Origin: Amphiscolops sp. MND2022
Lineage: Eukaryota
Reading direction: 5' to 3'
Length of the DNA: 60,000 nt
Assembly: GCA_964187785.1 (NCBI GenBank)
Contig: OZ076409.1
Coordinates: 27,840,001-27,900,000 of the forward strand
Shown: in pieces, positions 1 to 38,100 of the stretch
Numbering within the stretch: the stretch's first letter is position 1
Layout of the letters: every line of letters begins with the position of its first letter
Translations under genes and position numbers: made by a program
The notes under the pieces: generated by a model
The model's database searches: none
The model's input: only the letters and a program-made list of their open reading frames with translations
What the model was told of the DNA's origin: nothing

Positions 1-990
1 TTTCAATCGGAGTCTACTCCCCAACTAATGGCTCATCTGCCTAGTGAACGCGTGACCCCAGCTAGGGCGTTTTCTACCGATGGAATAGGTTTCGCTGGAC
101 GTTTCAATGTCAAGGACAAGAAAAATTCCAAGATCTATATCGCTGTATTCATTTGCCTAGTCACAAAAGCCATTCATTTGGAATTAGTTTCAAGTCCAAC
201 CAAGGAGGATTGCATAATGGCCCTTAAACGGTTCACATCAAGAAAGGAGCCCCTAAGAAAATCATAACAGACAAAGGAAGCAAGTTCATAGGGGCCAGAA
301 ATGATTTCCTTCGAATTCAAGCTCTTCTTAATAAAGAAACCGCTTGATGGTAAACAACTTCTGAGACACTTGGCAGGTCAAGGCACTGAATGGGTTACGA
401 TTCCCCCTCGAGCATCACATTTCGGTGGTATATGGGAAGCCGCTGTAAAGAGTATGAAGAGACATCTGAGACGCATACTCGGGCTTCAAACTTTGAAATA
501 TGAAGAACTAATTCTCCAGCAAATTGAAGCAACCTTAAACTCAAGGCCACTCTTTCCAATGTCCGATGACCCCAATGACTGCCGAACTTTAACGCCCGCA
601 CACTTTATCATGGGAGACTCGCTACTTTCAATAGCCAGAGAAGACATAGTTGTACCTGCAACACAGAGACTAAAACTCCTTGAACGAATTCAACAAGATT
701 TCTGGAAGTCTTGCAGCAGAGACTTCTTTGTGGAACTGCGAATACGAAAGAAATGGTTTCGTACTGGACCTGGTATAAACATGAGCGACCTTGCTTTGGT
801 AGCCGAAGATAACGGAGCCCCACTGGTGTGGAAACTTGCCAGAGTCTCGAAACTCTAAAATGAAATGATGAAATTCCGAGGGTAGCAGAGATCAAAACGT
901 CAAAGAAAACCTTCAATCGACCTACAATTGAACTCAGAATGCTACCGCTAGCTGAATCCATCGTGAAAAGAACCCCCAGTGGTCATTGAG
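1..990 (+). pseudogene. BEL/Pao LTR retrotransposon pol 3' end (integrase core and C-terminal domain), frameshifted
   Basis: ORF fragments with BEL/Pao integrase motifs MAHLPSERV, VFICLVTKAIHLELV, PPRASHFGGIWEAAVKSMKRHL, LNSRPL and LTPAHF. Frames are broken near 267-301 and 858. Confidence 0.9.
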
Positions 991-1201
991 GGAAGAAAAA
1001 GATGGAATATTTTGGTTAATTTCGTCGTTATCTTATGATGAAAAATTATGCCTTCTACTGAACTACTGACAACTTCATATACCATTTCAACTTGTCACAA
1101 GATGCCTTTGACAGCATATACTTCGGTCTTGCAGTTAATGAGTGGTTACTCCTCGGCAAGTTATTAAAGAGAAATGAAGAAAATTGATATACATACCTCT
1201 A

Positions 1202-2190
1202 TCAGAAACTAGAGCCGAATTCTTCCCTTCTGCGGCACCCTAGAGCCAAATACTGATCCGCTCGCCTCATCTGCTCAGTACGCCATCCTTCGATCCTCCT
1301 CTCGCAGCTGTACATCGTGCACACTGATCCAGGCTGCACGTCCGTTCAAACAGAGTGCAAGAAGAGGTACGGGAAGTAGACGGTGCGCCCAGGCTCCCGA
1401 AGAGTCCAAGACACCTGACGGGCCTGCTTCCTAGAGAGACATCACAAAACGTTGATAGCCTCAGAAAAAGACTTTCTTTGTTCTCGTGCAGTTGCATCCA
1501 GCTTCTTCCCTGTTGGTGAAGGCAGACAGAACATCCAAATCTTTCTCCCAGTAACGAGAGTAGAAAAAGAATGTCCTTCCTCAGCAACGTCAACATGGAA
1601 GCCTCTGAAACTAGACTTCTCCACGAGAACCGTGTCACCAAGTCTGTGCAACTATCTCCCTTTCGCTCAATTCCTCCGGATCACAGAACTGCACCCGGTG
1701 GTTTCACTCTCGTGCGGACTCTAGAAGGGGTCTCAACACTGTTTGACAACAGCACACCTCCCTTCCAAGTCTCTAAGACCATCCAACGAATGCAGCTTCC
1801 GCAGAGTCTCATCTTCTGAAGAGAGTGTTGCCAACCGCTCCTGAATGACCACCAATTCTCTAGGATCTTCAAGCACCTGCTTGAACGTCTTTACAGGCAC
1901 TGGAGTCGAGCATGACCACTTAAGCCACTTGAGTAAGATCTCAAATTCCGGCAACTTCCCAGAATCATTGGATCGCAGACCATATCCGTGGCTCTTTGAA
2001 AGGATCCACACGCCGCTTCCTCCCACTCCTCTCCCTCGCATTGTCATTCTCGACAAACTGTGCCGTGAAGTATCTGAAAACATAACTCTATCTTTATTGA
2101 AGGACTTCAACCCGGGGCGACATGTGTTGATGCTTTCTAAAACATTCTTTTGTGATAACTTTTGAATTAACCAATCAGGAATCAACACAT
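1202..2190 (-). pseudogene. Intronless JmjC-domain (Fe(II)/2-oxoglutarate dioxygenase) reading frame with premature stops
   Basis: One minus frame reads SSFRGFHVDVAEEGHSFSTLVTGRKIWMFCLP ... LREPGRTVYFPYLFLHSV*T. HxD at 1597-1589, GxKxW Lys at 1543 and distal His at 1357-1355 match the JmjC pattern. ORF 1733-2188 is in the same frame; terminal TGA at 1204-1202. Confidence 0.75.
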
Positions 2191-2540
2191 GAAGTTACGT
2201 ATGAACAAGTTTGAACTGTTGATTTTCTGCCACGTTTATTCACACTTTCCCACTTTATTTCAAGCGTCAAGTTTGTTTCTACTCTTCTCATTGAATAAAA
2301 ACTGTCTTCTCATTATCAAATTTAATTCAATCATTTCATAAATACAACTCTTCAAACATCAACAGTATAACTTTTTTTTGGTAAAGTTCGCTTTTGCCAA
2401 ATGCTCGGGATCAACATATTGTTCAATAAAAATTGCAGTAAAGAATATGGGCTACTGGCAAAATGGATCAGAAGTTGAATAAAGGTAGGCTGATATAAAC
2501 TACAACTAGGCTATTTAGGGTTAAGACTTAGTTCTTGTCT

Positions 2541-3100
2541 TTTTTAGTCGGCGCTTTTCCATTAAGGGAAAAATGCCCGACTATAGCAGTGACTTTTTTT
2601 CAGACTACAATCCTCACATTGATCGGTCCACTTTTTAGAAACAATCCTGAAACCACCTAAGGCGCCCAGTCCGGCAAAGGGGCCAAGGCAAACTTAGTGC
2701 AAAGGGTCCCCCTTTCATTTTTTACTTTTTCAAGGTAACCTACAAAACCGGCCGAGGCTAAAGGGTCCCCCCTTTCGAATTTTTTAAAAGTTTTTTTCGG
2801 CACTGTGCGACTTTTTTTCGAAAATTTTTTTGTCTCCAAAGGGTCCCCCCTATCATTTTTTGCTTTTTTTAACGTAACCTACAAAACCGGCCGAGGCTAA
2901 AGGGTCCCCCCTTTTGATTTTTTTTCGGCACTGTGCGACTTCGAAATTTTTTAGTCTCTAAAGGGTCCCCTTCAATTTATTTTGATATTTTGCAACAAAG
3001 TGGACTTTCAAAAAGCCAAAAGGGTCCCCCTTTTACAATTTTAAAAACTGCGCTTTTTGAGCCTTAGATATAGCGCCGACTTTAGACGTTCCCGTCTTGT
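2541..3100 (+). mobile_element. Non-autonomous Helentron/DINE-1-like element (HINE), copy 1
   Basis: 5' TTTTTAGTCGGCGCT with adjacent partial inverted repeat; 3' subterminal AGCGCCGACT (3072-3081), hairpin AGACG-ttcc-CGTCT and terminal TGT; internal AAAGGGTCCCCC repeats; T-rich flanks with no TSD; several copies in the window. Confidence 0.75.
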
Positions 3101-3497
3101 TATTAATTAAATAAATATTGGTTTAAATAACGGAAAAAGCCTTTGTCATAACCGAAATTTGATTCACATCATTTCTGGGTTCTTTGAACATTTCTACGGA
3201 AGCTGAATTGTTATGGAATCCGTGAATGGGATTTTTCTCTAGACCTATTTGTCGATCCGCTTAGCTAATTTTGATTGGCTACTCAAGTCATTAGCTAGTT
3301 TATTTAATTCTCGTGCGATGAAGCGAACAATTATTCATTCGTATCCCTTTCATCGAGATCAAGCAAATGAGTGTTGATTATTCGTACGCCGAAAGTTTCT
3401 GATACATTCAAATACGTGTGCGAACTTGGTAGTTTTATTTCCTTTAGTCCGAGAAGAGCCAAATGTGTTGTAAAGTGGCACAATTGTTAATTGTGCT

Positions 3498-12850: not shown

Positions 12851-13037
12851 TGAAGTAATTCTAAGATAGGCTTGAGAAAAGAGATTAAGATCAACGTTTA
12901 CTCTAGCTGAAAGTTTACTGTAATGATATCAGCTTTAGGTTAAAGGTTAAGTTGTTGTTAGTAAACAATAATAGGTTCGAACTAAAAATAGCAACGGTAA
13001 TTAATATAGAGAGATTGTTTGTAAACAGTCTACTTCA
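12851..13037 (-). repeat. 3' LTR of element 1
   Basis: Direct repeat of 18627-18813; TGAAGTA...TACTTCA termini. Confidence 0.95.
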
Positions 13038-15036
13038 TTCCCCCTTCTTTGATTGGAGGAGAATCCTCCAATGGGTGTGCTTGTCCGTTGCTGTCCATTC
13101 TATTGTTATGTCCGGTTCTCCGTCCATGGTCTGGTAGTATTTTCTCCGGTGTTCCGTGAGAGGCATGTTGTGCTTCCGGGCGGTTTACTGGTCGACCTCT
13201 TCGCTTTGCTCCGGCATTTCCTCTGAGTATTCCTGTAGTGGTGACAGGTTGAGTCGTCTTGTTGTGTTTCCTGTAATCAGATTGGTTGACTGGGTTGTTT
13301 AATCTAACAATTGGATTTGTATTTGTTAACCTCTTTGACCGGCGTAAGTTAGTATTTTTTGGTTGCTCTATTTCTTCCTCTAATTCGGTACTAGAACTTA
13401 AGTTGCTTGCTAGTTCTAATTCTGATAGATCTAGTTTGTTTTCTATTTTGTTGTTATAAATTGTCACCTTACCGGAGTTATCTCTGATTTGAATTTCTTG
13501 CCCTGATTGTGTCGAGTCTCTTATTGTTTGGTCAATATCGGACTCCGACATTTGGTCTGTATTGATGGTAAGTGTCCCGGTTCCTGCATTGTTTTGTTGG
13601 CCCGGTGTGCTGTCTGGTGTTAGCGGTTTGTTGGTCCGTGGCCTTCCTCTGCCAATTGTGCTTGCCCGTTTGGTGGTGGGCGGTTCTGGGCTGGTATCCA
13701 GATCTTCTTCTAATGGGGATTTTTCGGGGGATTGTTTGGTTTTGTCCTGTTTTCTGGAAAATCTCCCGTCTGGTCCTCTTGGGCCCGTCCCTCTGTTTGT
13801 TGGTTCCTGTTCAAATGTATTAATTGGTTTGCTAATTAATTTACGGTGGATAATTTTATTATCTGAGGTAGTCACGGTATGTTCCGTTCCCGTGACCGCC
13901 GTTTGTAGATGCTCTGAATATGGACTTTCGAATTTTCCCTTTTGATTTTTCCGTTCGAAGAACTGAAACGGGTATTTACTTACCGTTTTTGCTCCTTTTC
14001 TCTTTTGTTTCATTGGTAGATGGTCGGAGCTACCGCCTTCTCCACTGAATGTATATACCTGTAAGGTATCTGGTCTCGCTGAAATGGAATTATTGGTTAT
14101 CAATTTAGTTTTATCTAGTTTCAGCATATTTCCCCATTCCGTATTTGGTTCTCTGCCAAAGTGTAGTTCGAATGCGGATTTTCTTAGCCTAGTGTGTGGT
14201 GTGGTCCGCATCACGTTTAGTGCTAAGTCCAATGCTTTTCCGAATGGTTCTCCGGCTTTTATATTAGTTAAGAGGTTTTCTTTCAAAGTGCGTACTCCTC
14301 TTTCTACTAGGCCGGTTGGGGTGTGAATATACGGTGTCCCGTATATTAGTTTTATGAATTTGTTTCTACAGAATTCTCTAAAGTGTCGTCCGGTAAAGGC
14401 GGTTGCCTTGTCCGTTCTTATCGTTTTTGGTACACCGTTTAGGTTACAGTATTGTTCCAAAAATTTTGTCGCCGTTTCACCGTCTGTGGTTTTGCACAGA
14501 CTGGCGGCTGGCCATTTACTAAACCTGTCCATGGAGAGTAAAATATAAAATCTACGGTTTTGGTCCGTGATTGGTCCGATGAAATCCAATTGGATTTCGT
14601 CGTTCGGTGCGTTTAAGGGAGGTAAGCTATTTTGTTCTGTTCGTGGTATATTAGGTTTAATGTTCTTACCGGAAAGTTTGCACGGTATACAGCTGTCACA
14701 TTTTCGTTGTATGGCTTCCATCAGTTTGGGCCACCAGAAGTGCTTTGCGGAGAGTGTCATTTTGTTGATTGCCGGGTGTCCTTTATGCAGCAAACTTATT
14801 ACGGTTGTTCTCAGGTTGATTGGCACAATGATCTTGTCTTCGAAAAATACCAGCCCATAACGTGTTGATAGCTTTTTTTTGTATGGGGTATACTCATCCG
14901 GAATGTTGTCATACTGTTGACGTTCCAGACAAACGAGTGTCTTCAGCAATTTTGGGTCATTTGTTGTTTCCGTCATAAGTAACTGAAGGTCAGTGGCAAA
15001 TTCTTTTTCCGTTTCGCGGACGGTTTGTTCCAGGTC
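13030..15036 (-). CDS. Integrase portion of element 1 polyprotein (after the in-frame TAG)
   Basis: HHCC (HKGH..CDSCIPC) and DDE (QLDFIGP, RTDKATAF, GLVERG), then a long low-complexity tail; in frame with the upstream ORF. Confidence 0.9.
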   Translation of the reverse strand, partial: DLEQTVRETEKEFATDLQLLMTETTNDPKLLKTLVCLERQQYDNIPDEYTPYKKKLSTRYGLVFFEDKIIVPINLRTTVISLLHKGHPAINKMTLSAKHFWWPKLMEAIQRKCDSCIPCKLSGKNIKPNIPRTEQNSLPPLNAPNDEIQLDFIGPITDQNRRFYILLSMDRFSKWPAASLCKTTDGETATKFLEQYCNLNGVPKTIRTDKATAFTGRHFREFCRNKFIKLIYGTPYIHTPTGLVERGVRTLKENLLTNIKAGEPFGKALDLALNVMRTTPHTRLRKSAFELHFGREPNTEWGNMLKLDKTKLITNNSISARPDTLQVYTFSGEGGSSDHLPMKQKRKGAKTVSKYPFQFFERKNQKGKFESPYSEHLQTAVTGTEHTVTTSDNKIIHRKLISKPINTFEQEPTNRGTGPRGPDGRFSRKQDKTKQSPEKSPLEEDLDTSPEPPTTKRASTIGRGRPRTNKPLTPDSTPGQQNNAGTGTLTINTDQMSESDIDQTIRDSTQSGQEIQIRDNSGKVTIYNNKIENKLDLSELELASNLSSSTELEEEIEQPKNTNLRRSKRLTNTNPIVRLNNPVNQSDYRKHNKTTQPVTTTGILRGNAGAKRRGRPVNRPEAQHASHGTPEKILPDHGRRTGHNNRMDSNGQAHPLEDSPPIKEGGMK

Positions 15037-18000
15037 CTAGCTATTTTGTTCGAGGGCTTGAACTCTTGGGGCGTGTCCCATTTTTATGTACTGCACGCTT
15101 TTTACCCCGATGTAATTTGCCCAGTTAATGGTGGGTACTTCCAGTACCGACGGTGCCAGTTCTGAGTCGCTGGAAATTTCTCCCTCTTCCATAATAATGT
15201 CCTGTTGGTTAACCGGTTCTGCTCTTGATGTTCCCGGTTGATCGTTATTAGTCCGCTGTATGAACCCTCCTCGGAAGTTTTGCGGAGCAGGTGCGGTCGA
15301 TTGCCAGTCTGCGGAGTATTCGTCAGATTGTTGTGGCCGGTTTCGAATTTCCCTGGCCGGGCTTTCTAGTTTCCGGATTATTTCGGAAAGTCTTTCTTCT
15401 ATTTCTCGTCTTTCTCCGCGGAGAAATTTCGGTTCATGGTATTTTTTCCATTTCCCGTTTGAGAGTCGGTATATTCCTGGCTTTACTATATTTCGCCACC
15501 GCTCTATCAGGTCCGTTGTTTCTTGTGAGTTGTCAATTCGCTCCAGGTTGTCCACTGTTCTTGCATCCATTGCTTTAAGATCGATCTGGTTTTGATGAGT
15601 TTTGCTACTTGTTTTGATGCGGTCAATGTTGTTAATGGCGTTTTGTTCACGTGTGCGTTCCGTTGACGGCTGTTTGTTTGCTTTCGTTCCTTTTGACATT
15701 TCGCTGCGCGCTTGTGATTGGACAAGGTGGTTGCTAAGGCAACCAACTTTTGAAACAAATTCGTAGTGCGGTACTATGCTGTTAATTACGTACTCTTCTT
15801 CGTATGCTTCGTCTTGTTGCGGTGGTGCGATTGGATTTCTACTCAAGTAATCCGTCAAAGCTAAATGCTTTCCCGCGATGTGGTTCACGTTAATTGAGAA
15901 GTGTGCTAATCGGTCGAGCCATCTAGTTAAACGGGCGCTGTATGTTTTATTAGAGCGGTTGCGTTTAATTAATGGTTCTAAAGCCTGATGATCGGTCAAT
16001 AGTTTTATCGGTTTACCGTATATATATAAACGGAAATGTTCTAGGCCCCATACAACCGCCAATAATTCTAATTCATTAATGGCGTATTTTTTTTCGGTAT
16101 CCGATAGAAATCTGCTTGCAAATGCTATCGGTTTCAATTCGCCATTATGTTGTTCTTGCCAGAGAGTTGCGCCCAGGCCTTTCGTGCTGGCGTCTGTCGT
16201 TATTGTATTCGGTAGATTGGAGCTGTAGTGTGCTAGACACGGTATCTCCGTGATCTTGTTTTTTAATTGTGTAAATGCTTCGGAGTGTTCTGGTGTCCAG
16301 CTCCATTCATTATTTTTTTTCAATAGTTGTCTCAGCAAGTCCGTTTGGGCTGACAAGTTTTCAATGTATTTTGATAAATATTGGATTGCCCCCAAGAAGG
16401 ATTTTAGTTCCTTTTCGTTTTTTGGTTCTTTTAGTTCTTGTATGGCTTTGAGTTTGTCTTGCAACGGTCTAATACCGTTTTGATCAATTTTGTGTCCCAC
16501 CCATTCTATTTCCGATTTGAAAAATTCGGTTTTGTTTTCGCTTAGTCTGTAACCTGCGTTTTCTAGTTTTGTTAATACGTCTATTAACTCGCGCTTGTGT
16601 TGTTCTTTTGTTCCTTTGGTAACTACTAATATGTCATCTAACCACGCCGGATGTTTGTTTTCCAGTGTTTGGTCGATCTTTTCTTGAAATATGGTCGGAA
16701 TGTCCGCCAAGCCGTAGAAGCCTTTAAGGAATCTATAGTAGCCGGTAAAGTTCCCACCGGTTACCGCAAATATGCATAGGTCCATTGCGTTTTTTGATAA
16801 CGGTAGTTGACCGTATGCATAATCCAAGTCGAATTTCGATATCCATATCTCGTCTGCTTCTCCGTCGGCGATTTTTCTGGATATTCTGGAAATTAATTCC
16901 TCCATATTCGGCATTTGCGCTTTTCTTTTCACGGTAATTTCGTTGAGTTTCCGTGAATCTAAGGCAATTTTTACCGATTTGTCTTTTTTGACTGTGATAA
17001 CGGCTGGGCTGACAAAGCAGTTTTCGTCGATATCGGTAGCTTTTTCAATATGACCGTTCTTCATTAATTTCTCGATTTCTTTACCGACTGCCGGTTGTAA
17101 ATGAATCGGTATCGGTCGGCCTTTCTGTTGTATCAATTTTGCGTCTGGTTTTAGTTGAATGTCTACTTCTATTCCTTTCACGGTTTTGTTCTCGTGAAAT
17201 AGTTTTTTGAATTTGTTTTTCAAATCGATGATATCTGGATCTTTTTGAATGTTTTGGATTTTTAGGTTTGACTTTTCGACATTTACGTTTATTCCCAGAT
17301 GTTTCATCCAGTCTAGTCCCAGTAATGGATTTGTTCTTTTTGTGGTAATCAGTAACTCGAGTTTCTTCTTTTCTCCGTCTATTTCGATGTTTGCCATTGT
17401 TTTTCCTTCGAATTTAATTTTGTTGTTGTTTACGTCTCTGTATTCTTCGTTCAATGGATATATTGTTGTAATGCCGTTGAACTTTTGTTTTGGTATTATG
17501 GTGACCGGTGATCCGCTGTCTATTATGAATTTGATTGGACGGTTGTTGACCAATACCGTCGCCGTGAAGAATGGTTGTCCGTGTTTGGATATTTGTATTG
17601 TTGAATGGATTGTTTTGTTTATTGAGTGTATCTTGTTTGGTGTCCAGTTGTCTTCTTCTGCGCTGGTGGCTTCGGAGTCTTGTTGGATGTGTTTTATTCT
17701 ACGGTCCGAGTTTTGTTTTGATCGGCATAATCTTGCAAAATGGCCGATTTTTCCGCAGTTTAGACACTTTTTTGTTTTCGCCGGACAGTCATGTGATTTG
17801 CTCCAGTTTGGTGCCCCACATCTGATACAGTCTACTTTTCTGAATTTATTTTGTCTTTCTTTTTCCGGCTTTTGGTAGGTTCTTTTTCTATCCACGTGTT
17901 TAATTTTTGTTTCTTCTTCGGAATCTTTCGATTCGTTCATTTTTTCATACATGTATTCGTGTATTGTGTCAGTAATTGCTTCTACCGACATGTCCCCTTT

Positions 18001-18597
18001 CTTTATTTTCTTCTTCAGGTCCTTGGTGTCTGTCGTTTTTCCGATAACGGATAGGAATTTTGATGCCAGCAGTTCTGCCGCTGTTATTTCTTCAAATTCG
18101 CAATTCTTTTCGATTTCTAGAATGCGTTTCCACGTTTCCGCAGCTGATTCTCCTGGTTCTCGTTTTAGGTTGAAGAAGTCTGCTCTACTGTGGTGTTTGT
18201 TCCTCTCGGGGATGAAATGGAGTCTGAATAGTGTATAAAGACGGTACAGTGGTAGAGAGTTTGGCTCTCTCTCTCTTACCGTCTTTGTCATTTCCGTGAT
18301 TGCTGATTGGCCAATCGCCCATATGAATACGTCTTTAATTTCTTCCTCCAACTGCTCTCTAAATTGTGGCAGTATTTCTTTGGAGTTAGTCATTTTCGAC
18401 AAGTCGATTTCTCGGGTCATTTTAATGTATTGGACGAATTTTCTCCACCATAGCTTTGCACTGGTGTGATCATTCTTTTCGAGGATCGGAATGGGTAGCT
18501 TTTGTGTTGCTGTCCGTTCAACCGATCTCGTCGTTGTGTTGTTTGGAAGGGATTGGCTGTTACTCTGTCCAGTAATGTTGCCTTCTTCGTCTTCCAT
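15037..18597 (-). CDS. gag-pol polyprotein of element 1 (Gag with two Zn knuckles, protease, RT, RNase H)
   Basis: CIRCG..HDCPA..CLNCGKIGHFARLC, FIIDSGS, HPAWLDDI, TDASTKGLGA, TDHQAL. Ends in a TAG that is in frame with the integrase ORF. Confidence 0.93.
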   Translation of the reverse strand: MEDEEGNITGQSNSQSLPNNTTTRSVERTATQKLPIPILEKNDHTSAKLWWRKFVQYIKMTREIDLSKMTNSKEILPQFREQLEEEIKDVFIWAIGQSAITEMTKTVREREPNSLPLYRLYTLFRLHFIPERNKHHSRADFFNLKREPGESAAETWKRILEIEKNCEFEEITAAELLASKFLSVIGKTTDTKDLKKKIKKGDMSVEAITDTIHEYMYEKMNESKDSEEETKIKHVDRKRTYQKPEKERQNKFRKVDCIRCGAPNWSKSHDCPAKTKKCLNCGKIGHFARLCRSKQNSDRRIKHIQQDSEATSAEEDNWTPNKIHSINKTIHSTIQISKHGQPFFTATVLVNNRPIKFIIDSGSPVTIIPKQKFNGITTIYPLNEEYRDVNNNKIKFEGKTMANIEIDGEKKKLELLITTKRTNPLLGLDWMKHLGINVNVEKSNLKIQNIQKDPDIIDLKNKFKKLFHENKTVKGIEVDIQLKPDAKLIQQKGRPIPIHLQPAVGKEIEKLMKNGHIEKATDIDENCFVSPAVITVKKDKSVKIALDSRKLNEITVKRKAQMPNMEELISRISRKIADGEADEIWISKFDLDYAYGQLPLSKNAMDLCIFAVTGGNFTGYYRFLKGFYGLADIPTIFQEKIDQTLENKHPAWLDDILVVTKGTKEQHKRELIDVLTKLENAGYRLSENKTEFFKSEIEWVGHKIDQNGIRPLQDKLKAIQELKEPKNEKELKSFLGAIQYLSKYIENLSAQTDLLRQLLKKNNEWSWTPEHSEAFTQLKNKITEIPCLAHYSSNLPNTITTDASTKGLGATLWQEQHNGELKPIAFASRFLSDTEKKYAINELELLAVVWGLEHFRLYIYGKPIKLLTDHQALEPLIKRNRSNKTYSARLTRWLDRLAHFSINVNHIAGKHLALTDYLSRNPIAPPQQDEAYEEEYVINSIVPHYEFVSKVGCLSNHLVQSQARSEMSKGTKANKQPSTERTREQNAINNIDRIKTSSKTHQNQIDLKAMDARTVDNLERIDNSQETTDLIERWRNIVKPGIYRLSNGKWKKYHEPKFLRGERREIEERLSEIIRKLESPAREIRNRPQQSDEYSADWQSTAPAPQNFRGGFIQRTNNDQPGTSRAEPVNQQDIIMEEGEISSDSELAPSVLEVPTINWANYIGVKSVQYIKMGHAPRVQALEQNS

Positions 18598-18626
18598 TGT
18601 AGTTCTTTAAATTGTTGACTGCGCCA

Positions 18627-20508: not shown

Positions 20509-22751
20509 CTAGTATACTTAGATCTGGTCGAATCCTGAAAAATTCACCGGAAAAAGAATTAGAACAATCAGAATTGCGAGAATCTAGTCCAGAAAACTTA
20601 AATTTAGACCTCAGTTTCGGTTTATCAGCACCAGGGCCTCTTACACAGGCAATTATAGACGATTTAGCTGGGTCTGAGTCCACCATGCGAGTGCTCGACG
20701 ATATCATCGAAAATGATTTCCTCCTGTTTTCCCCTAAAAAAAACAGACGATGCCCCCCTTGAAGCCACCCAAAGTCGTGAGGAGATACCCCCCGAAAAAT
20801 CGGAGACCGAACAAGGGCCCTCAACGCTACCGGCGGAACAAAAAACAGTAAAACGCGGAATCAAGCCAAAACAATCTGATGAAATTCAGTGTCCAATCTG
20901 TCCAAAAAAAGTGAAATTTCTTCGTCAGCATTTAGTCAAGAGCCACAAATGGACCGGTATCCCCCTACGTTTCATTTTGAGTGTGTTTTCTACTAAAAAT
21001 GCCAAAAGTCCGGTGTATGAATGCGCAGAATGTGTATACCGTTTCACTCATCGTCAGCGACATTTGAGTCAATTCCCTCAACATTCAATCAAAAACATCA
21101 CCCGAGACAATTGCAATGTATTTCCAGCCGAAATCATCAAATACATGAAAGAAAAAGGTGTCCTATCCGAGAAGGGCGGCGAAATGCTGAACAAATATCG
21201 CGATTATTGTATCGAAAAAATGAAACGGCCACTTGCAAATTTCCAATTCGACGCAATTTCAAAGTTTTTTAGAGGCACACACAGCATGAAAAGACCTGAA
21301 CTAGTTGGGAAAAGTCTTGATGATTTGAAAAAAGATCGCCAATATACTTTCAGCTCAGTACGAAAAATTTGTTTTGACATCAAACAGTTCATAAAGTGGA
21401 TGAATGCCGGGCATCAAAAATCTTATCGTATAAACAAGGTCAGTTTTGACGACTCGATCAATTTGTGGCTCAGTGAGACTTCTAAGGATTGCCTTAAAGA
21501 ACAGTCAAAGCGAAAACAGGAACGATTTGCACAAATTCCTACCATGGAATCACTTTGTGAGATCCAAGACAAGGTGGAAACTTTCATTGAAAATAAATTA
21601 GAATTAGACTCTCGATGGCATACAATGACCGTATTCGAAAAATTGTCGCTGATGTTATTCCAAATTCACTCACGGGCCAATTGCCGTGTGGGTATTTTGT
21701 TGTCTTTTACGACTGAGCAACTTGACGCATATGAACCAGGGACCTTTATTTGCTCGAATGACCATAAAACCGGAAGTTTATTCACCAACTACGCCTATAT
21801 AACAGCTTTTGAAAAGAAAGTTTTGCAAGAAATTCACAGTGAATACGAAGAAAAAGACGGTATCAAACCGACAACAATTTTTCCCGGCCATGATGATAAT
21901 GAATTCACGTCGCAATCGGCCACAATCAGCCGTCTAATGAAAAATTTATTTGGCAAAAAAGACGAAAAATTCAACCCGAATTCATGCAGAAAAGTTTGGG
22001 AGACTTTTTATGAGAAAAACAAGCAAAAAATTCCGACAAATCTCCGCAAAATATTCTAGGCTAATTCGGCACACTCTGAGAAGACGCGTGAGAAACACTA
22101 TGTTGTTCCACCAACAGATAATGAGTTACAAAATTTATTCGATGCGACAAATGATATCCGTATTCAATTTCGAAAAAAACGCGCCGAAAAACAATCAGAA
22201 ATACAATTGACAGTTCCCAGTACTGCTTCTGAGGATGCCGCCGAAAATCTTGAAGATGAGGATGATCCTCAAACTGAATTAATTGCTTCTTCGTCAAAAA
22301 ACTTTGTCCAAAACAGATCAAGTGAAAACTGGTCAGAAAGATGCAAAACGGAAAAAAGTTTCAAAAAAGAATAAAAATCGGGACTCCGAAACAGATCAGG
22401 ATTCTGAAAGCAACAGTAATGATAACGACGAAGAATTTCAACCCCCCCCCCCCCCGAAATGCAAAAGTTGTCAAAATTGAAGATACAAACATTAAAACAA
22501 GATTGAAAAATGAGGAATTATATGATGAAATTGCCAAAAGACTTTTGAAATTCAGTAACAGAAAGTCTTTCCCGTTGGAATCACAGTATAAAAGAGCTTG
22601 TCGAATGGTGGCTTCAAAGAGAGCAAAGTTGTCGAAAGGCAACGTAAAAGACATCGTAAACGAATTGAAACTAAATGAGGAAGACACTGCTTTTGTTTTC
22701 AAAAAAGTTTATTGTAAGCTGGTTAACGTTTACGCTACTGTAAAATTTTAG
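20505..22751 (+). pseudogene. Tyrosine recombinase with N-terminal C2H2-type zinc fingers, interrupted by one stop and homopolymer frameshifts
   Basis: CPICPKKVKFLRQHLVKSH and CAEC..H fingers. Catalytic-type motifs in order: ANCRVGIL (R), DHKTG (K), PNSCRK (xxxR), then past TAG 22057-22059 AHSEKTREKHY (H...Y, Tyr at 22099-22101). Frameshifts in an A run near 20740, near 22300 and in the C run at 22442-22455. Confidence 0.8.
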
Positions 22752-23600: not shown

Positions 23601-23793
23601 TGTAGAGAGTGCAGACAATTAACTTAATTAGTCTTTATGCTATTTACTACATTTGTATTGTTGATGTTCTTTTGTCTAAATACCTGCCACTTAAGTGCAG
23701 ATGATCTACAATCATATAGCTCGAATAGTAAGCAAGAAAACAATTGAGTTTTGTACTGAAATACTTCTTCAACCATAAAGCTAGAATACAACA
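23601..23793 (+). repeat. 5' LTR of element 2
   Basis: TGTAG...CAACA; repeated at 29464-29656. Confidence 0.95.
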
Positions 23794-23860
23794 AGGCGCA
23801 GTCAGAATAGCTTTAAAGCTAAACACGATTTACACCAAAAAGAAAAAGTAACCATTCAAC

Positions 23861-26800
23861 ATGGAAGAAAATACGGGAGACGGAGAAAACACACAGACGT
23901 CAGCGGGCACACAACGAGACGGACAAATGTTACCGAACGACACAATGAACAGGACGGTAGACCGGACCTGCACCCAGAAGCTCACCATTCCCACGCTAGA
24001 AAAGCCCACGCAAGCATGTGGTGGAGAAAATTCGTCCAATACATAAAAATGACGAAAGACATAGATTTGTCAACCATGACAAACAGTAAAGAAATCCTAA
24101 CACAATACCGTGAACAACTCGAAACCGATATAAAAGACATTTTTATCTGGGCAATCGGACAAAATGCTATCACGGAGATGACAGAGACGGTCAGGGAAAG
24201 AGAACCGAGCTCATTACCATTATATAAACTGTACACACTCTTCCGACTACACTTCACCCCAGAGAGAAACGTACACCATAGCAGAGCCAACTTCTTTGAT
24301 TTGAAACGGGAAGACGGCGAAACTGCAGCAGATGTATGGAAACGGATATTAGAAGTAGAAAAGAACTGCGAATTTGAAACAGTTACCGCAGCAGAACTTG
24401 TAGCATCAAAATTTTTGTCACTCATCGGTAAATCAACCGGTGATTACGACTTAAAAAAGAAAATCAGAAAGAGTGACATGTCGGTAGAAGCCATAACTGA
24501 TGCAATACATGAGTATATGTACGAAAAGTTAAACGACTCACCCGAAACAGAGGAAGAGAAGAAAATCCGATATGTAAATAAACGAAAAACAAAAACCACA
24601 AAAGAACAACCAGAAAAACCGGCAAAATTTAAAAAGATCGACTGCAACCGTTGCGGAGCACCGAACTGGTCACGCCAACATGAATGTCCCGCCAGAGGAA
24701 AGAAATGCGCAAAATGCGGCAAAATCGGCTATTTTGCTAAATGCTGCCGCGCAAACAAAAGAGTAAACCACTTAATGGAAGGCGAAACAAGCAGCGCGGG
24801 TGAAGATGACTGGACACCGAACACAATCCATTCAGTAAAACAAAAGATACACTCAACCCGGTCGATGAGCAGCAAGGGACCGGAATTCTTCACAGTCACC
24901 GCATTGGTCAATAACCGACCAATCAAATTTATAATAGACAGCGGCTCACCAGTAACGCTAACACCAAAATCACAATTCAACAAGTTAACACCACTACGTC
25001 CCCTGGAAACAGAATACCGGGACGTGAATGACAACCGGATACGATTTGAAGGGAAAACAACCGCGAAAGTAGAAATTAACGCAACCCGAAAAGAACTGGA
25101 GCTCTTAGTAACAACCAAGAAAACAAACCCCTTGCTAGGTTTGGACTGGATGAAAAAATTGGGAATAACACTGGAGACCGGTACGACCGTCCCACAAATA
25201 CACCAAATAAAAGAAGACCCAAACGTAACAAAATTAAAAACGAAATTCAAAAAACTGTTCAACGAAAACCATACAGTAAACAGGCTAGAAGTAAAAATAC
25301 AACTGAAAGAAGACGCAAAACTGATACAACGGAAAGGAAGACCCATACCGATACATTTACAACAATCGGTGGAAAAAGAAATTGAAAAGTTAATAAAACA
25401 AGGACACATCGAAAAGGCCAACAACATCGACGAAAATTGCTTCGTAAGCCCAGCAGTAATCACGGTAAAGAAAGATAAATCCGTAAAAATAGCGTTAGAT
25501 TCGAGAAAGCTAAACGAAATAACCGTGAAACGAAAAGCTCAAATGCCGAACATGGAGGAGCTGATTTCGAGAATATCGAGAAAAATAGCAGATGGCCCAG
25601 CAGACGAAATCTGGATCTCCAATTTCGATTTAGATTACGCCTATGGTCAGCTCATACTCTCAAAATCAGCCAGAAACGTGTGCATATTCGCTGTAATCGG
25701 AGGAAACTTCACCGGTTACTACCGTTTCCTAAAAGGGTTCTACGGGTTAGCGGATATACCGACGATCTTTCAAGAAAAGATCGACCAGACACTGGAAAAC
25801 AAACACCCAGCATGGTTAGACGATATTATCGTGGTAACGAAGGGATCTAAAGAAGTACACATGAAAGAACTAATCGACGTCCTAACCAAGCACGAAAACG
25901 CTGGATACAGACTGAGCAAAACAAAATCCGAATTTTTCAAAACAGAAATTGAATGGATCGGTCACCGGATAGATCAAGCCGGAATCCGACCGCTACAAGA
26001 CAAGTTACTGGCTATAAAAGAACTGAAACAACCGAACAACGAAAAGGAACTAAAATCTTTTCTGGGAGCCATCCAGTATTTGTCAAAGTACATTGACAAT
26101 CTTGCCGCCCAAACTGACAGTTTGAGACAGCTGTTGAAAAAAATAACAAATGGCTCTGAACGGAAGAACACACGCTGGCTTTCGAAAATTTAAAACAAAA
26201 GATCACGGAAATACCGTGTCTAGCACATTACAATTCCGACTATCCAAACGTAATAACAACCGACGCAAGCACAAAAGGCTTAGGGGCAACCTTATGGTAA
26301 GAACAACCGAACGGAACACTAAAACCCATCGGTTTTGCAAGTCGCTTCCTATCAGACACAGAAAAAAATACGCCATTAACGAGCTCGAATTACTGGCAGT
26401 AGTTTGGGGCCTAGAACATTTCCGTCTATATATTTACGGTAAACCTATTAAACTCTTGACGGATCACCAGGCATTAGAACCATTAATTAAACGAAATCGT
26501 TCCAATAAAACATATAGCGCACGTTTAACACGGTGGTTGGACCGGTTAGCCCATTTTACGATCAACGTAAACCATATAGCCGGCAAACATTTAGCTCTCA
26601 CGCATTATCTAAGCAGAAATCCGGTATTACCACCACAAGTGGACGACAGGTACGACGAAGCATACGTAATCAATAATATCATTCCACACTACAGCTTCAT
26701 CTCCGAATACGGTTGCCTTAGCAACCACACGAGCCAATCAGAAAACGGTACCGAGAAAAGCGAACGCAAATCAAACAACGAGCCATTGACAAACGACACG

Positions 26801-29451
26801 CGTAAACAAACTGCCATTGATTGCCTTTACAGCGATGTACACACACGCTCAAATTCAAACAAACCGAATAATTCAAAGCATACCACATTACCAAGGGATG
26901 CTAGAACAATCGAAAACATCGAAACGAGATTTAATTCCGCCGAAATAACCGAGCTAACGACTCGGTGGAAAGAAATTGTAAAACCCGGAAATTATCGCAT
27001 GACCGGGGGGAGATGGAAACGCTACCATGAACCCAAATTCCTTCGCAATGAAAGGAAAATCATATTAGAACGATTACAACAACTTACCAGTAATCAACAA
27101 CCAAAAGACTTTCGACAAATTATCGGACCGCAACACAAAGGGGGCTATAAACCACTAACCGGTCACTCCGAGCAATGGACAGTGGATCTATTCTGGGAAA
27201 TGGACCGACCAACCCCAGTGGAACAACACCAACCAGACAAACCTGGCCCATCCTCCGCACCGATCCCCATGGAAGAAGGTGAGATCGACTCAGAAACAGA
27301 CCAAGACCCTTCGGTCCTAGAAGTGCCAGCGATAAACTGGGCACGATATGTCGGGGTAAAAAGTGTCCAGTATGTAAAGATGGGACACGCACCAAGAATT
27401 GCAGCCGAAGAGCAAAATGACTGGAACCTAGAACAGGCAGTGCGGGAGACAGAAAAGAACTTATCCACGGATTTGCAGCTAATAATGACTGAGACCACAA
27501 ATGACCCCAGCCTGTTAAAAACCCTGGTATGTCTCGAAAGACAACAACAAGAAATGATACCCGACGAGTACCAAATGGTCCGAAGAAAGCTATCCAGCCG
27601 GTTCGGTCTTGTCTTCATGGAAGACAGAATCATAGTGCCAAAGAACCTCCGAAACCACAGTCATCAGTCTTTTACACAAAGGACACCCAGCCATCAATAA
27701 GATGACCCTGGCAGCTCGACACTTCTGGTGTCCAAAGATGACGGAAGCCATACAGAAGAAAAGTGAAACTTGCATACCCTGCAAAATGTCCGGTAAGAGT
27801 ATAAAACCTAACATACCCAGCACGGAAAAAAAAACCTACCCCCGGTGCATAGCCCGAACGAAGAAATCCAATTGGATTTCATCGGACCAATCACGGATAA
27901 CAACCGTCGAGTCCATATACTACTGTCCATTGACCGGTACAGCAAATGGCCGGCAGCCAGTTTTTGTAAATATACCGACGGGGAAACGGCGGTAAAATTT
28001 TTTGAACAATACATTCAGCTGAACGGTATACCAAAGACAATCAGAAAAGATAAAGCAACTGCGTTCACGGGCCGCACTTTTCGCAATTTCTGCAAAAAAC
28101 ATTACATCAAACTGATTTACGGAACACCGTATATTCACACCCCCACAGGTTTAGTAGAACGAGGGGTCAGAACTCTGAAAGACAATCTTCTAACGAACAT
28201 TAAGGCCGGCGAGCGGTTCGGAAAAGCCTTAGACTTGTCATTAGACGTGATGAGAAAAACACCTCACACGAAACTAAAGAAATCCGCATTCGAACTACAT
28301 TACGGTCGAAAACCAAACACGGAAATATCCAATCTGTTAAACTTAGATAACTTGGAAAATCTAACAAAGAATTCCATTTCAGCGAAACCAGATACCTTAC
28401 AGGTATATTCATTCAGCGGAGTTGGCGGTGCCTCCGACCAGCTACCGATGAAGACAAGAAAAAACGATAAAGGAGTTAGTAATCAACCCTTTCTTTTTTT
28501 AGAAAAAAACATCAGAAATCAAAATTCGAAAGCGCATATACAGATAAACCGAATATAGCTATTTCGGAAACGAACCATACCGTAACAACGCCAAATGGAA
28601 GGATAATACACAAGAAATCCATTAGTAAACCCATCTGTGATTTTAACCAGGACTGCAACAACAACAGAGGAACCGGGCCGAGGGGACCAGACGGCCGGTT
28701 TACAAGATCACCATCAAAACCGAAGAGGGCATACGAGATCGAATCAGACACCGAGACACCGCCACCAGAGACAAGCAACCCAATCACCACGGACCAATCA
28801 GACAACGCCACGGTGAAAAAGGGCACGTATGGCAGAGGCAGACCAGTGATAGCAGTACGAGACCGGAGGAGCTCAAGCCCCCACCAACCCCCACCAGGAG
28901 GGATGAGCAACACTGGTCCACTTACCATCACCGCCGCCAACATGACAGACACGGAGATCAACCGTACTATCGAAGACGCTAGACAAGCGAACGATGAACT
29001 TTTTATCAGAGATGATAACGGTAAGGTGTTTAAAAATCTGACTTCTTTCCCTAAAACGGGGGAAGAGAACAACTTTGAAAATTCTGAATTAGACCTGATC
29101 AGTAATCTGAGCTCTAGCACCGAATTAGAAGCAGACATTAAACACGAAGAAGAAAAAACAATACGCAGATCAAAAAGACTAACAAAAACCAACCCAATTG
29201 TTAGATATAATAATCCAGTATGTCATGATTACAGGAAACATCGTAGAAAGGCTGAACTCGGAAGCAACACTGAGTCAAATGGAAACGGAAACAAACGACC
29301 CCAATTAGTCCATACAACAGACAACAAACTGACGTCACGGATAAACGCTCACCGTGACAACCATACAAGCAAGGATCGGGTATCCGTCCACAAACAACTG
29401 GACCATTGGAGGGACTACCGCCATACAGCAGAACCGAACATCAGTCAATAG
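23861..29451 (+). pseudogene. gag-pol of element 2 with multiple frameshifts and stops
   Basis: Fragments (e.g. 24016-26193, 26150-27700, 27845-28558, 28813-29451) are collinear with the element 1 polyprotein. Confidence 0.92.
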
Positions 29452-29808: not shown

Positions 29809-31010
29809 TCAATGTTTTGATAGAATGAAGTCCAAAGTCAGATTTTTGTCTCCCAAAAATAAATATGAGCCAGGACGCAAACCTTCCCAAGTAATATACT
29901 TTTGTGATGGGTACCTCCAAATCCCCTTTTTAAAATTCCAGTAGCCGGTTCCAAAAGTCCTTTCTCCTCTAATCGCGAGTCTGAATTTACATTCAAACTC
30001 TGGAACTGGATTGTCCTTCACAATACTGTTGCAGTGGACTATGATTTTGAGACCATTTTGTAATAATGTACCATTGTTCGAGGCCTCTATCCAAAAGCGA
30101 ATATGTCCAAATGTCATATTATCAGATGCAGCGATGGCGTCCATAGAGTGTACAAAAGTTATCCTCGATAGAAAGGAAGGCGGAATGGTTGTTTGTGAGG
30201 TTGTTCACGGCGAGTGTACTCTTTTCGTGAAATAAGACACATCGAACGACATGACTGGTCAGAAGAGACCGCTGCTGGTGAAGAAGACCCAACAGAAGAT
30301 TGTTCAGATAATTCAGTGCAGAGGGAAGTAGTTGAGGAAGCAGGCGATTCTCTTCCACAGGCCACGAGAGTGTTTTCAGAAATAGCCAAAAAGTTTCGTT
30401 TCCGCAAGTTAACGTTTGACAGATGCATTAGAAAAGGCATTTCCGGCACACTTTTCCCCGGAATTTCGTTGCGTAATATTTTGCTATAGTTGTCAGCATC
30501 TTTCTTATCCGATTGCAACTTCTCAAGCTCTGCCATCTTGCAATCGATTTTTTTCTCCAGAATTTTCTTGTATTTCGTTAAACCATCCTTTAGAGGCATT
30601 TCAAACTGAGATTCGATTTTATCCACGAAATGTTTTCTCAACTTTCTCATAGAATGATTGTCATGGTCTTCATCGATGCACTTTTCGCATATCATGATAT
30701 TACACTCTGTACACCAAAAGGTACATTCTTCCGCCGTGTGCATAAAACATGGCAAGTGTACTTTCTTGTGAGTTCGCAGTGCCTGGACCTGTAGGAAATC
30801 GCGGATTCCATACAGAGGTTTCAGCGCCTCTATTGTAACTTGAGGATGTACAACACGACAGACAGCGCACCGCAAGCCTTCTCGGATATCCAAACTGTTC
30901 AGGCATCCCCGTGAAGGGCCACAGAATGAATGCCCACACGGTAGAGCTCTAGGGTCTTCCACATCAACTAGGCAAATCGCACATTTGGGGAACTCAGCCT
31001 CAACTTCCAT
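29809..31010 (-). pseudogene. Intronless TRIM-like gene: RING, B-box, coiled coil, MATH/TRAF-like C-terminus; frameshift near 30160-30260
   Basis: CAIC..LPCGHSFC..C..CAVC RING and CFMH..FWCTECNIMICEKC...H..H B-box. ORF 29809-30144 has a MATH-like beta pattern (FWIEA..GLKIIVHC..FECKFRL..KYITWEGL..LTLDF). Confidence 0.75.
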
Positions 31011-31183
31011 GGTAACCCAATGCTAAAACATGCAAACTTTTTTGAACGCCATTTGACCTGCCACGCTTCTCATATGACTTTTCTAAATACGGAATCTGGT
31101 GTCCAGATCTTTAGATGCGACATTATACTATAACAAATGACGAAAGTTTTCACGGATTATTATTGCTCCAGCAAACTTTCAAG

Positions 31184-34977: not shown

Positions 34978-35168
34978 TGTGACATGACGTCATATTATGT
35001 ACTTATTTACATACATGCTAAAAATAGTAGTACTGACAATTTAGTACCAGTCAATAGTACTACCATGTAACATACATATGCTGACCTATTCACTTAACCT
35101 TTATACTTTGATACAGAATAGAAGCTTCAGCATTACATTCTTTTCATACTTATTTGTGAGATACAACA
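34978..35168 (+). repeat. 5' LTR of element 3
   Basis: TGTGACA...CAACA; repeated at 40705-40895. Confidence 0.95.
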
Positions 35169-35184
35169 TGGCGCAGTAAGCAAG

Positions 35185-38100
35185 ATGGAGAGTCAAAAAT
35201 CATCAAAAAGCACAAGCTCATCAAGTGGGGAAGTACCCGAAAGAGCAAATGCAAAAACAGAAAAAACTCATCAAAAAATCACGCTACCAACGTTCGAGAA
35301 ACGGGGAATACAAGAGGCAAAACTATGGTGGAGAAGGTTCACCCAGTATATAAAGATGACTCAAAACATCGATCTAAACGAAATGACAACAGATCGCGAA
35401 ATATTGCCGAACTACAGAGACGATCTGGAACACCGGATCAAAGATTTATTTATATGGGCACTCGGCGAGTCAGCGATAACGGAAATGACAAGAACCGTTA
35501 GAGATAATGATCCAAATAAAATGGACATTAACCAACTATATTCACTGTTCCGGTTACACTTCATACCGGAACGAAACAAATTTCACAGCAGAGCAGATTT
35601 CCTTGGGATAACTAGAGAAAAACATGAAACAGCAGAAGATGTGTGGACCAGAATATTACAAGTGGAAAAGAATTGCGAGTTCGAGAATGTGACACCAGCC
35701 GAACTGAAAGCTTCAAAATTTCCCTCTGTAATCGGACGGTCAACCGGTGACTACGAATTAAAAAAGAAAATCCGAAAAAGTGACATGACAATAGAAACAA
35801 TAACCGCATTATTACACGAGCACATGTACGACCGATTGAACGAATCGAACAATTCAAATGATGGAAAGGAGATTAAACATGTGCAGGAACGGCCACACAA
35901 AAGAAAGTGGACAGACAAAACCGATCAAGACAAATTGAAAAGACGACCGGAAAATCAAAAATATAAACAAAGAGATAACCGATGCGGACAATGTGGCGCA
36001 CCAAACTGGACAAGACAACACATATGCCCGGCGAAAATGGCAGAATGCAGAAATTGCAAAAGAAGAGGACACTATGAAAAAATGTGTAGATCCTCAAAAA
36101 GAGTTCAATACATCGAAAAAACAACTTCATCAGCAGAAGAAGACAACTGGGATTACAATAGAATCCAAAGAATAAACGATAAAGAACAGAAGAAAGACTT
36201 CTACAACGCAAAACTATTGGTCAACAACGTACCAATAAAATTCATCATAGACAGCGGCTCACCAGTAACACTAATTCCAGAGTGCTTATTTAACGATATA
36301 ACCACAATTAAACCACTCAAAACCACTTACAAAGATGTAAACAATCAAAGGATTGAATTTACTGAACAAACGAACGCACTGGTGAAAACAAACAAAGAGA
36401 CAATTGAATTACCACTACTGATTACAAAAGCGAAAACATCACCATTGATGGGATTGGACTGGATGCAACGGTTAAAAATCAACCTGAGCTCAAATAACGA
36501 AGCAATCCAAATCCACAATATAAAACTAGACAACATGGACAAGAAAATAATAATACTCCAGAACGACTTCAAAGATTTGTTCTACAACAACTAAGAGATA
36601 AAGAACCTCTCAGTCAAAGTACAATTGAAAGAAGGGGCACAAATAATATAACAAAAAGGAAGACCGATCCCAATACACCTACAAGACCAAGTGGCATTAG
36701 AACTAAAACGACTTATCAAACACGGGTACTTGGAAAGAGCAACAGAAATCACCGAAGATTGTTTTGTGAGTCGCGCAGTGATTACAGTGAAAAAAGACAA
36801 ATCAAAATAAATTGCCCTAGACTCCAGAAAACTCAACGAAGTTACAATAAAGAGAAAAGCTCAGATGCCAAATATGGAAGAGCTAATTTCACGGATATCA
36901 AGAAAGATATCCGAAGGAAAAGAAGGCGAAATTTTGGCAACAAAATTAGATTTTGACCACGCCTACGGTCAGATTAAACTCGACGAAAATACAAAAAACC
37001 TTTGTATATTCACTGTAACAGGAGGGGACTTTACCGGATACTATCGTTTCTTGAAAGGATTTTACGGACTGGCCGATATACCAACAATTTTCCAAGAACG
37101 AATAGACACGACACTTGAACACAAACACCCGGCATGGTTAGACGACATCATTATAGTCACCAAAGGAAGCATTGATGAACACGAAACGGAAGTTCGGGAG
37201 ACAATGAAGAAACTGGAAGAAGCTGGCTATAGACTAAACCCAAAAAAGTGCGAATTTTTCAAAAAAGAAATCGAATGGGTCGGACACAAAATTGACCAGC
37301 AAGGAATACGACCATTACAAGATAAACTAGAAGCCATCACAAAAATCAACATACCAAAAAACGAAAAAGAATTAAAATCATTCCTGGGAGCAAAACAATA
37401 CTTATCAAAGTACATCGAAAATCTGTCAGCAAACACAGACGTACTGAGAAAGCTATTGAAAAAACAAAACGAATGGATTTGGACAGACGAACACACAGAA
37501 GCATTCAACAAGCTAAAAGAAGGCATAACCAGAATACCATGCCTGGCACACTATAACGCACAAAACGAAAACATAATCACCACAGACGCCAGTACAAAAG
37601 GACTGGGGGCAACGTTATGGCAAAAACAAAAAGATGGAAATTTAAAACCAGTCGGATTCGCAAGCAGATATTTATCGGACACAGAAAAGAAATATGCGAT
37701 AAATGAACTAGAACTACTGGCAGTAGTGTGGGGATTGGAACACTTTCGATTATACATATACGGAAAGCCAATAGAACTATTAACAGATCACAAAGCGTTA
37801 GAACCATTAATCAAAAGAAATCGATTGAACAAAACATATAGTGCAAGATTAACAAGATGGTTAGACCGCTTGGCTCATTTTGATATAAACATCAAACATA
37901 TCGCCGGAAAACTTTTAGCACTAACCGATTATCTGAGCAGAAACCCAATCTCAAAACCAGTACCGATTGAAAATTATGATGAAGAGTACGTAATTAATTG
38001 CATAATGCCTTTACTCGAGTTCATCAACAATTATGGCAGCGTCGCCAGTCAAAAGAAATTAGAAGCGCGAACGGATCAAAACGAACAGCGTGAACAAACC

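Follow-up and report, generated by a model that had tools for sequence, protein, structure and literature searches.

Antisense JmjC-fold genes carried by BEL/Pao retrotransposons, with a candidate role against silencing

Introduction

JmjC proteins form a class of iron-dependent enzymes, some of which erase silencing marks from chromatin. Cargo known from retrotransposons includes chromatin readers with a chromodomain or MBD, as well as DNA methyltransferases and a single RNA demethylase. Several described systems come close to the one presented here, the orchid Gypsy AlkB enzyme and the JmjC genes of DNA viruses being the nearest. Orchid Ty3/Gypsy elements carry an AlkB m6A demethylase, so that an LTR element is combined with an additional 2OG/Fe oxygenase ORF that was read as counter-defence; this enzyme has the AlkB fold and an RNA substrate, and it was captured recently, in a plant, with close similarity to host genes (PMC9289625). 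Endogenised giant viruses of Amoebidium encode a stand-alone KDM4-like JmjC protein, which was proposed to counter H3K9me and whose gene also retains introns (PMC11244446), and ORF11/13 of LbFV are JmjC genes (PMC5381508). The viral JmjC proteins are thus borne by a parasite, stripped of reader domains and proposed to act on host chromatin (PMC11244446, PMC5381508). Antisense ORFs that lie between pol and the 3′ LTR, in the orientation found here, are described in Retand, a plant Gypsy element, where they encode a TRP28 domain and no enzyme fold (PMC11963269). The movement of epigenetic enzymes between transposon lineages is also known from DNA transposons that encode TET/JBP and SET (PMC12730594) and from retrotransposons that encode DNMT (PMC5890265), all of them enzymes other than JmjC; according to PMC12730594, no retrotransposon with TET/JBP was found in that work.

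The DNA analysed here, termed the window, is a stretch of 60,000 nucleotides from Amphiscolops sp. MND2022, which begins inside a BEL/Pao element. As in other BEL/Pao (Belpaoviridae) elements, a single gag-pol frame, TG...CA LTRs and a 5-bp target site duplication (TSD) are present in this group, which differs by an extra antisense JmjC gene, placed 3′ of pol or within the LTRs, an arrangement not found in print. In contrast to the orchid Gypsy enzyme, the protein has the JmjC fold and is old and divergent, and its gene occurs in many lineages of two superfamilies, in antisense and with predicted introns. While the viral JmjC genes belong to large DNA viruses and have an assignable host subfamily or donor, the carrier here is an RNA-replicating element of 7 kb, whose JmjC lineage is unassigned. 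Among the best-ranked matches of the literature searches, no publication on JmjC in any LTR retrotransposon was found (the search left aside Repbase Reports, subscription journals and supplements), and a search for the term "jmj" in a review of giant transposons gave no match (PMC6431247). Within the literature found, a JmjC accessory gene in LTR retrotransposons is apparently undescribed.

Structure of the element

The features of the window copy, which belongs to a family termed here family A, are the following.

1..989, plus strand: decayed 3′ end of BEL/Pao pol with integrase core and DUF5641 (Pfam DUF5641 E 1e-11, rve weak)
990..1201, no strand: spacer separating pol from the JmjC stop; a gap near 1022-1025 shortens it by about 145 bp relative to sister copies
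1191..1196, minus strand: splice-donor-like GT of a predicted 3′ UTR intron, 5 nt past the stop of the JmjC frame; almost every family-A copy that extends over the site has it
1202..2066, minus strand: antisense JmjC-fold gene, decayed; 291 aa in open sister copies
1349..1360, minus strand: distal iron-binding His H240 (LHSV), present in 25 of 29 covered family-A loci
1535..1549, minus strand: G-x-K-x-W strand (GRKIW) with the predicted 2-oxoglutarate-binding K178, present in 29 of 29 covered family-A loci
1589..1597, minus strand: H-x-D iron ligands H160 and D162 of the 291-aa frame (of 30 family-A loci, 29 keep the H and all keep the D)
2074..2080, minus strand: T-rich AG resembling a splice acceptor, 7 nt ahead of the start position; it is predicted to end a 5′ UTR intron or to serve as a trans-splice site
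2125..2364, plus strand: true 3′ LTR, TGTTG...CAACA, about 240 bp, defined by LTR pairs and 5-bp TSDs in sister copies

The genome of the window (1.07 Gb) holds at least 47 matches to positions 1200-2200, most of them at 80-90% identity, and the pol part is about 90% identical to that of sister copies. In most of the 30 loci that were fetched, the homology spans pol and the JmjC region and ends at window position 2364, with the 3′ LTR beyond the gene; the initial annotation, made from the letters of the window, had rightly suspected that the gene lies inside the element. A second LTR copy is found in 16 of 20 ten-kb family loci, complete elements measure about 7.0 kb, and an exact 5-bp TSD flanks L032, L033, L035, L041 and L043 and also surrounds the tandem pair L038/L039. 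A PBS-like TGGTGCC follows the 5′ LTR in sister copies, and a purine-rich tract at about 2111-2124 precedes the 3′ LTR of the window copy. Integrase follows RT, as in Pao-type gag-pol. The Pao-type domain set (DUF1759, protease, RT, Peptidase_A17, integrase, DUF5641) is full in the related families C and E and for the most part present in F, to all of which the pol of family A aligns at 38-57%. The window element is a BEL/Pao retrotransposon with an antisense JmjC gene between pol and the 3′ LTR.

The window element reaches about 4.2 kb upstream beyond the window start. A 5′ LTR upstream had been anticipated, and it was found about 4.0-4.2 kb before the window; it pairs with 2125-2364 and not with the pieces 2420-2540 and 3101-3132, in which the initial annotation had sought a split 3′ LTR. 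Among the 20 family loci, the pieces 2420-2540 and 3091-3140 have no counterpart outside the window copy and are flanking DNA. The left end of the 5′ LTR is missing, so that the TSD of this copy cannot be recovered. Its LTR pair is 92.3% identical, compared with 96.8-100% in most sister copies, which makes it one of the older copies. A dispersed repeat at 2541-3101, made of repeated AAAGGGTCCCC units and earlier taken for a HINE, occurs beside many loci and lies outside the BEL element.

The antisense gene in the window and in family A

The JmjC frame ends about 213 bp past the end of the integrase/DUF5641 region (near 989), in agreement with the earlier estimate of about 200 bp. The convergent minus-strand frame 1202-2194 does carry the motifs noticed at first sight, the iron-binding triad (FHVD, LHSV), GRKIWMF and EPGRTVYFP, and is indeed split by stops, six of them internal. 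Compared with an open sister copy, it contains four frameshifting indels (near 1642, 1687, 1774 and 1991) and two 3-bp gaps, and the start codon is lost. Many copies are broken as well; a frame free of stops over nearly the whole protein exists at five family-A places among 139 matches. The window gene is a dead copy of the family-A JmjC gene. Its stop end at 1202 was placed correctly in the annotated frame 1202..2190, whereas coding starts near 2066. An upstream ATG adjoining the LTR (309-aa frame) was rejected as the start, since other families lack it; the second ATG was chosen because the conserved acceptor and database relatives point there.

Identity of the encoded protein

The Pfam search gave no JmjC match for the window frame read with X at its stops, nor for the intact family-A frames, and a phmmer search of the single protein against PDB returned one unrelated weak match only. 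The JmjC character proposed for the frame was instead recovered through the profile of its relatives and through the fold. Among other members, the family C exon passes JmjC_2 (22.9, cut-off 22) and those of the Gypsy family, F and G pass Pfam JmjC; 40 relatives that were scanned gave mostly weak JmjC or Cupin_8 matches, and a JmjC-type cut-off was passed by seven of them. In the ESM Atlas the family-A protein is located beside JmjC clusters (score 0.95). A profile of 12 natural frames retrieved 70 relatives among 1.84 billion representatives, from which P0102, an unrelated repeat protein, was dropped. The best matches of a 44-row profile, which includes P0104, itself a conventional JmjC protein, were KDM7A, PHF8 and PHF2 (1e-13 to 1e-10), followed by KDM2A (1e-6) and then JMJD6 (6e-4). 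The AlphaFold model of the 291-aa frame forms a single domain (mean pLDDT 86.7, pTM 0.83), for which Foldseek listed PHF2, FIH and KDM7A at the top (E about 1e-7). The VIA alignment gave Z 12.6 for PHF2 (rmsd 4.2, 224 aligned) and Z 12.5 for KDM2A (4.3, 231), with FIH, ceKDM7A, JMJD5 and JMJD6 tied with both within one Z unit (11.9-12.6). JmjC enzymes occupy the top ranks in both comparisons, and the predicted fold is the double-stranded beta-helix of this class. The JmjC call for family A rests on relatives, the profile search and the predicted fold. With these at hand, none of the observations that the initial annotation had named as contrary to its proposal was made: other family copies carry the JmjC segment, the 3′ LTR does not map before position 1200, and a JmjC match was obtained through the relatives.

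The protein shares with KDM7 (KDM7A, PHF8, PHF2) and KDM2 the best profile match, a joint-best structural match and the H-x-D...H plus K ligands, the H, D, K and H being kept in 13 of 13 retroelement rows of an alignment across families. It differs by the lack of PHD or CXXC, by the loss of GxNF and by an identity of only 9-14%. In the GxNF strand of KDM2/7 the N occurs in none of the 13 retroelement rows, the alignment being loose there, and three positions ahead of the first His, six retroelement lineages have Arg where KDM7 has a Thr. No PHD, CXXC or other reader domain was detected by Pfam in the frames or seen in the model; families E and G may have a further upstream coding exon. The tree against JmjC genes, called for from the start, was run, and it places the retroelement JmjCs outside the KDM7-like clade (100/99), which consists of C. 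remanei P0146 and six genes of DNA elements and includes no retroelement row (33 rows, 175 columns, one reference KDM7-like row). They constitute a separate deep group, whose monophyly is supported at 92/93 in one tree, from which three rows without the matched motif were left out, but not in the other, where it appears in 32% of bootstrap trees (164-175 columns, long host branches). A single-copy host KDM7/KDM2 gene was not retrieved with Pfam or P0146, and its absence is not demonstrated by these searches, because both match lists were filled by element copies.

These comparisons bear on what the enzyme modifies. It may be a protein hydroxylase of the JMJD4/5/6 or FIH type, which would favour the element by modifying a host factor involved in defence, splicing or translation, or a protein of the element such as Gag or integrase. 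JmjC-only hydroxylases are likewise stand-alone and without reader domains, as is the retroelement protein of about 290 aa; FIH, JMJD5, JMJD6 and TYW5 (Z 11.6) all lie within one Z unit of KDM7/KDM2, and the retroelement JmjCs are found outside the KDM7-like clade. JMJD6 is also reported to hydroxylate splicing proteins (PMC4316176). Nevertheless, such an activity is judged unlikely, though worth keeping in mind, as the sequence profiles place KDM7/PHF8/KDM2 well above JMJD6 and did not retrieve FIH and JMJD5, and chromatin modifiers are present on other mobile elements of the same genome.

Purifying selection

Of the 30 family-A loci, 23 entered the estimate of selection, after a hybrid and six tandem duplicates had been set aside. 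Changes common to at least three copies comprise 25 synonymous and 15 nonsynonymous ones (pN/pS 0.18), while private changes comprise 95 synonymous and 238 nonsynonymous ones and 11 stops (pN/pS 0.81; shared versus private, Fisher p 2e-5). The private changes are near neutral, as expected after insertion. The integrase gave 0.80 for private and 0.02 for shared changes, so that selection on JmjC is weaker than on integrase (0.18 compared with 0.02). Four of the five other frames yielded 1.5-3.5, and a like value (0.18) appeared only in the mirror frame that shares third positions but has stops. Within lineages, pairs gave dN/dS of 0.08-0.46; between families pS is 0.68-0.83, at or near saturation, and protein identity 36-49%. 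The antisense JmjC gene is under purifying selection, and the intact ORF that was to be looked for in other copies exists as 291-aa open frames with the above ratio for shared variants.

A fragment of a host gene that was picked up once, is carried passively and is now decaying would agree with the dead window copy and the many broken ones. This reading is largely refuted and its probability is very low, since the antisense frame is under purifying selection, frames are open across families whose pol is only 42-57% identical, and the catalytic residues are invariant between families. The gene very probably encodes a selected, element-borne JmjC oxygenase.

Splice signals and RNA

A T-rich AG stands 0-8 nt before the ATG in ten of the ten families with a placeable start (background 3.6% for a similar pattern), and a donor within 16 nt after the stop is good in 9 of 12 families, weak in two and absent in one (background 4.5-13%), both patterns having been defined after the sites had been viewed. 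In families C and D, GT-AG segments that are rich in AT and contain stops (about 114 and 97 nt, respectively) interrupt the antisense frame in phase 0 at the same protein position. The gene, at first described as intronless, is so in the coding stretch of family A and probably not in these two families. In three runs from one seawater metatranscriptome sample, 5-9% of words were present, and at 80% likeness RNA covered LTR, JmjC, pol and gag as short low-depth contig pieces. One RNA joint has GA..TC ends, which are non-canonical, and is not a splice; neither a splice joint nor a strand signal was seen in these low-depth short pieces of a single sample, which speak neither for expression nor for a habitat.

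One may ask if such a unit (acceptor, ATG, frame, stop, donor) is a cassette that host transcripts take up by splicing once the element has landed in an intron, so that host promoters would drive it whatever its substrate. Most families do have an acceptor directly before the ATG and a donor directly after the stop, and a first or last exon was not located within the element. However, the JmjC gene is embedded in the LTR itself in two lineages, and the selection on variants shared among replicating lineages implies that expression is tied to the element, which leaves splicing into host transcripts improbable.

Distribution among retroelement lineages

Protein searches and fetched loci showed that relatives of the gene are carried by one Gypsy family and by no fewer than 12 BEL lineages; in all cases examined they run antisense to pol. 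The initial idea of a captured enzyme is therefore upheld as regards a JmjC-fold gene in BEL/Pao, and not as a one-off event. In two lineages the gene lies within both LTRs (1.6-2.1 kb), so that solo LTRs carry it too. Four loci (L089, L101, L105, L107) are solo LTRs of BEL family F with JmjC, which is open in L101 and L089; in this family the gene is thus scattered without gag-pol. The JmjC of L101 was also considered as Gypsy cargo, and this was rejected, as it is a nested solo LTR of family F. In the Gypsy family, whose elements are 12 kb long, the antisense JmjC gene follows pol and is succeeded by a third ORF, for which Pfam gave no match. One such element (L099+L081+L100, G000:C12, about 55300400-55312450) shows identical 504-bp LTRs, gag, pol and the antisense JmjC; the third ORF is a sense one of 753 aa located, by position only, where env would be.

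When loci were sampled by their DUF5641 score and not by JmjC, 9 of 30 loci, from three of eight BEL clusters, had a JmjC gene within 1.5 kb, although further genes may have escaped notice because of nested insertions or the short flank. In five clusters it was not found within this distance, so that the gene looks dispensable for the superfamily in this genome. The integrase and JmjC trees are concordant for A, B, B2, C, D and G. They conflict for E2, whose integrase belongs to the group of A, B, B2, C, D and G (100/100) while its JmjC belongs with E (100/99), and the JmjC of the Gypsy family groups with BEL H, I and J (97/88 and 91/87). Both conflicts suggest that the JmjC module was swapped between lineages. 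A dozen lineages hold this module, with apparent exchange across superfamilies. A tandem array of family-A and family-E JmjC pieces (L024/L050, G000:C9:11606000-11618000) is possibly a recombination product of two BEL lineages.

The database relatives P0005 and P0070 have best matches of only 66% and 42% identity in the genome of the window and P0073 has no match there, which indicates that other assemblies hold members of the JmjC family as well. Loci surrounding such relatives were sought in two metagenome scans, and none was found.

Possible function

We favour, with a probability of about 0.45, a role in counter-silencing by histone demethylation. According to this model, an antisense promoter in the 3′ LTR would drive a JmjC transcript that would be spliced on the antisense strand. 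Lying on the strand opposite to that of the genomic RNA, the introns would not be spliced out of it and would thus be retained through reverse transcription, which may explain the fixed orientation of the gene. The protein, which has basic patches at its ends, would act in the nucleus on a methyl-lysine substrate of the H3K9me or H3K27me type, so that repressive histone methylation on the elements would be removed or blunted. In the profile search the closest matches erase repressive marks, and the substrates given for KDM7A are H3K9me2 and H3K27me2 (PMC4316176). Large multicopy elements of the same genome, in which a KDM7/KDM2-like JmjC lies near SET-like and BRCT ORFs, also speak for this reading, as does the precedent of the giant-virus KDM4-like proteins. 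The tie of the hydroxylases FIH, JMJD5 and JMJD6 with demethylases in the fold search speaks against it, and so do the loss of the GxNF strand, the lack of reader domains, the selection that is weaker than on integrase, the RNA pieces in which no splice joint was seen and the apparent dispensability of the gene. Because the protein lies outside KDM7/KDM2, a histone demethylase directed against silencing is put forward here as a proposal and not as a finding.

Family A shows no CpG hypermutation (13.7 compared with 10.0-12.8 transitions per kb), which would make any silencing by histones or small RNA more likely than by 5mC. The absence of a CpG-methylation footprint also weighs against a nucleic-acid substrate, such as element RNA, primer tRNA or cDNA, for which TYW5 acting on tRNA and the orchid Gypsy AlkB acting on m6A RNA would be the models. 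The latter is a proven case of a retrotransposon-borne 2OG RNA demethylase (PMC9289625), the Z value of TYW5 is close to that of the demethylases, and several families have basic terminal patches. The fold, however, is that of JmjC rather than AlkB (Z 7.4-7.6 for AlkB-type matches), and five of six proteins have an overall pI close to neutral; a substrate of this kind is rather improbable.

If the erasure of repressive marks is true, it would provide a direct mechanism by which a retrotransposon escapes from heterochromatin, together with a set of compact natural demethylases devoid of reader domains. Whatever the substrate, a selected antisense accessory enzyme gene with predicted introns resides within an element that replicates through RNA. 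A broader picture may be offered tentatively, at less than even odds: LTR elements with their own old stand-alone JmjC histone demethylases (spliced in antisense, traded among BEL and into Gypsy, spread by solo LTRs) and large DNA elements with KDM7-like erasers beside SET-like genes would both take part in a genome-wide arms race over histone marks that leaves no 5mC footprint. A warning also follows, as JmjC "expansions" in such genomes would be transposon cargo.

Other elements and genes

The large multicopy elements with intron-bearing KDM7/KDM2-like JmjC genes are L076, L077, L078, L079, L087, L088 and L109 (e.g., G000:C7:8654819-8655439). Their JmjC genes (PHF8 E 5e-23) lie near BRCT, SET-like and, by eye, Tudor-like ORFs and tandem repeats; one family counts 28 copies at 99-100%. 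No transposase was identified in them, and their Atlas matches remained below 0.8. L111-L116 and L153-L156 (e.g., G000:C6:37139889-37141751) are additional KDM7-like JmjC genes in many copies; their products of 400-620 aa start with a C2H2-like finger and contain short peptide repeats. A SET ORF is near one of them, and in one group many copies have a stop directly after the GxK strand. Among host genes, KDM5 is present as one open frame of 1435 aa (L082:1068-5372, minus strand), and KDM6-, KDM4-, KDM3- and JMJD4-like exons, with subfamilies assigned by eye, were seen at L083, L086, L110 and L084/L085, respectively.

The rest of the window contains three related Gypsy-type elements at 13030-18606 (minus), 23785-29451 (plus) and 35122-40422 (plus), in the first of which one stop ends the gag-pol reading ahead of the integrase frame. 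A 463-aa ORF at 20668-22059 (plus) has a zinc-finger-like start and, by eye, tyrosine-recombinase-like motifs (Crypton-like), with a weak ROS_MUCR match as its only Pfam result. An ORF with RING and B-box (TRIM-like) occupies 30159-31022 (minus), and a fragment of a rhodopsin-family GPCR is found at 55336-55929 (minus).
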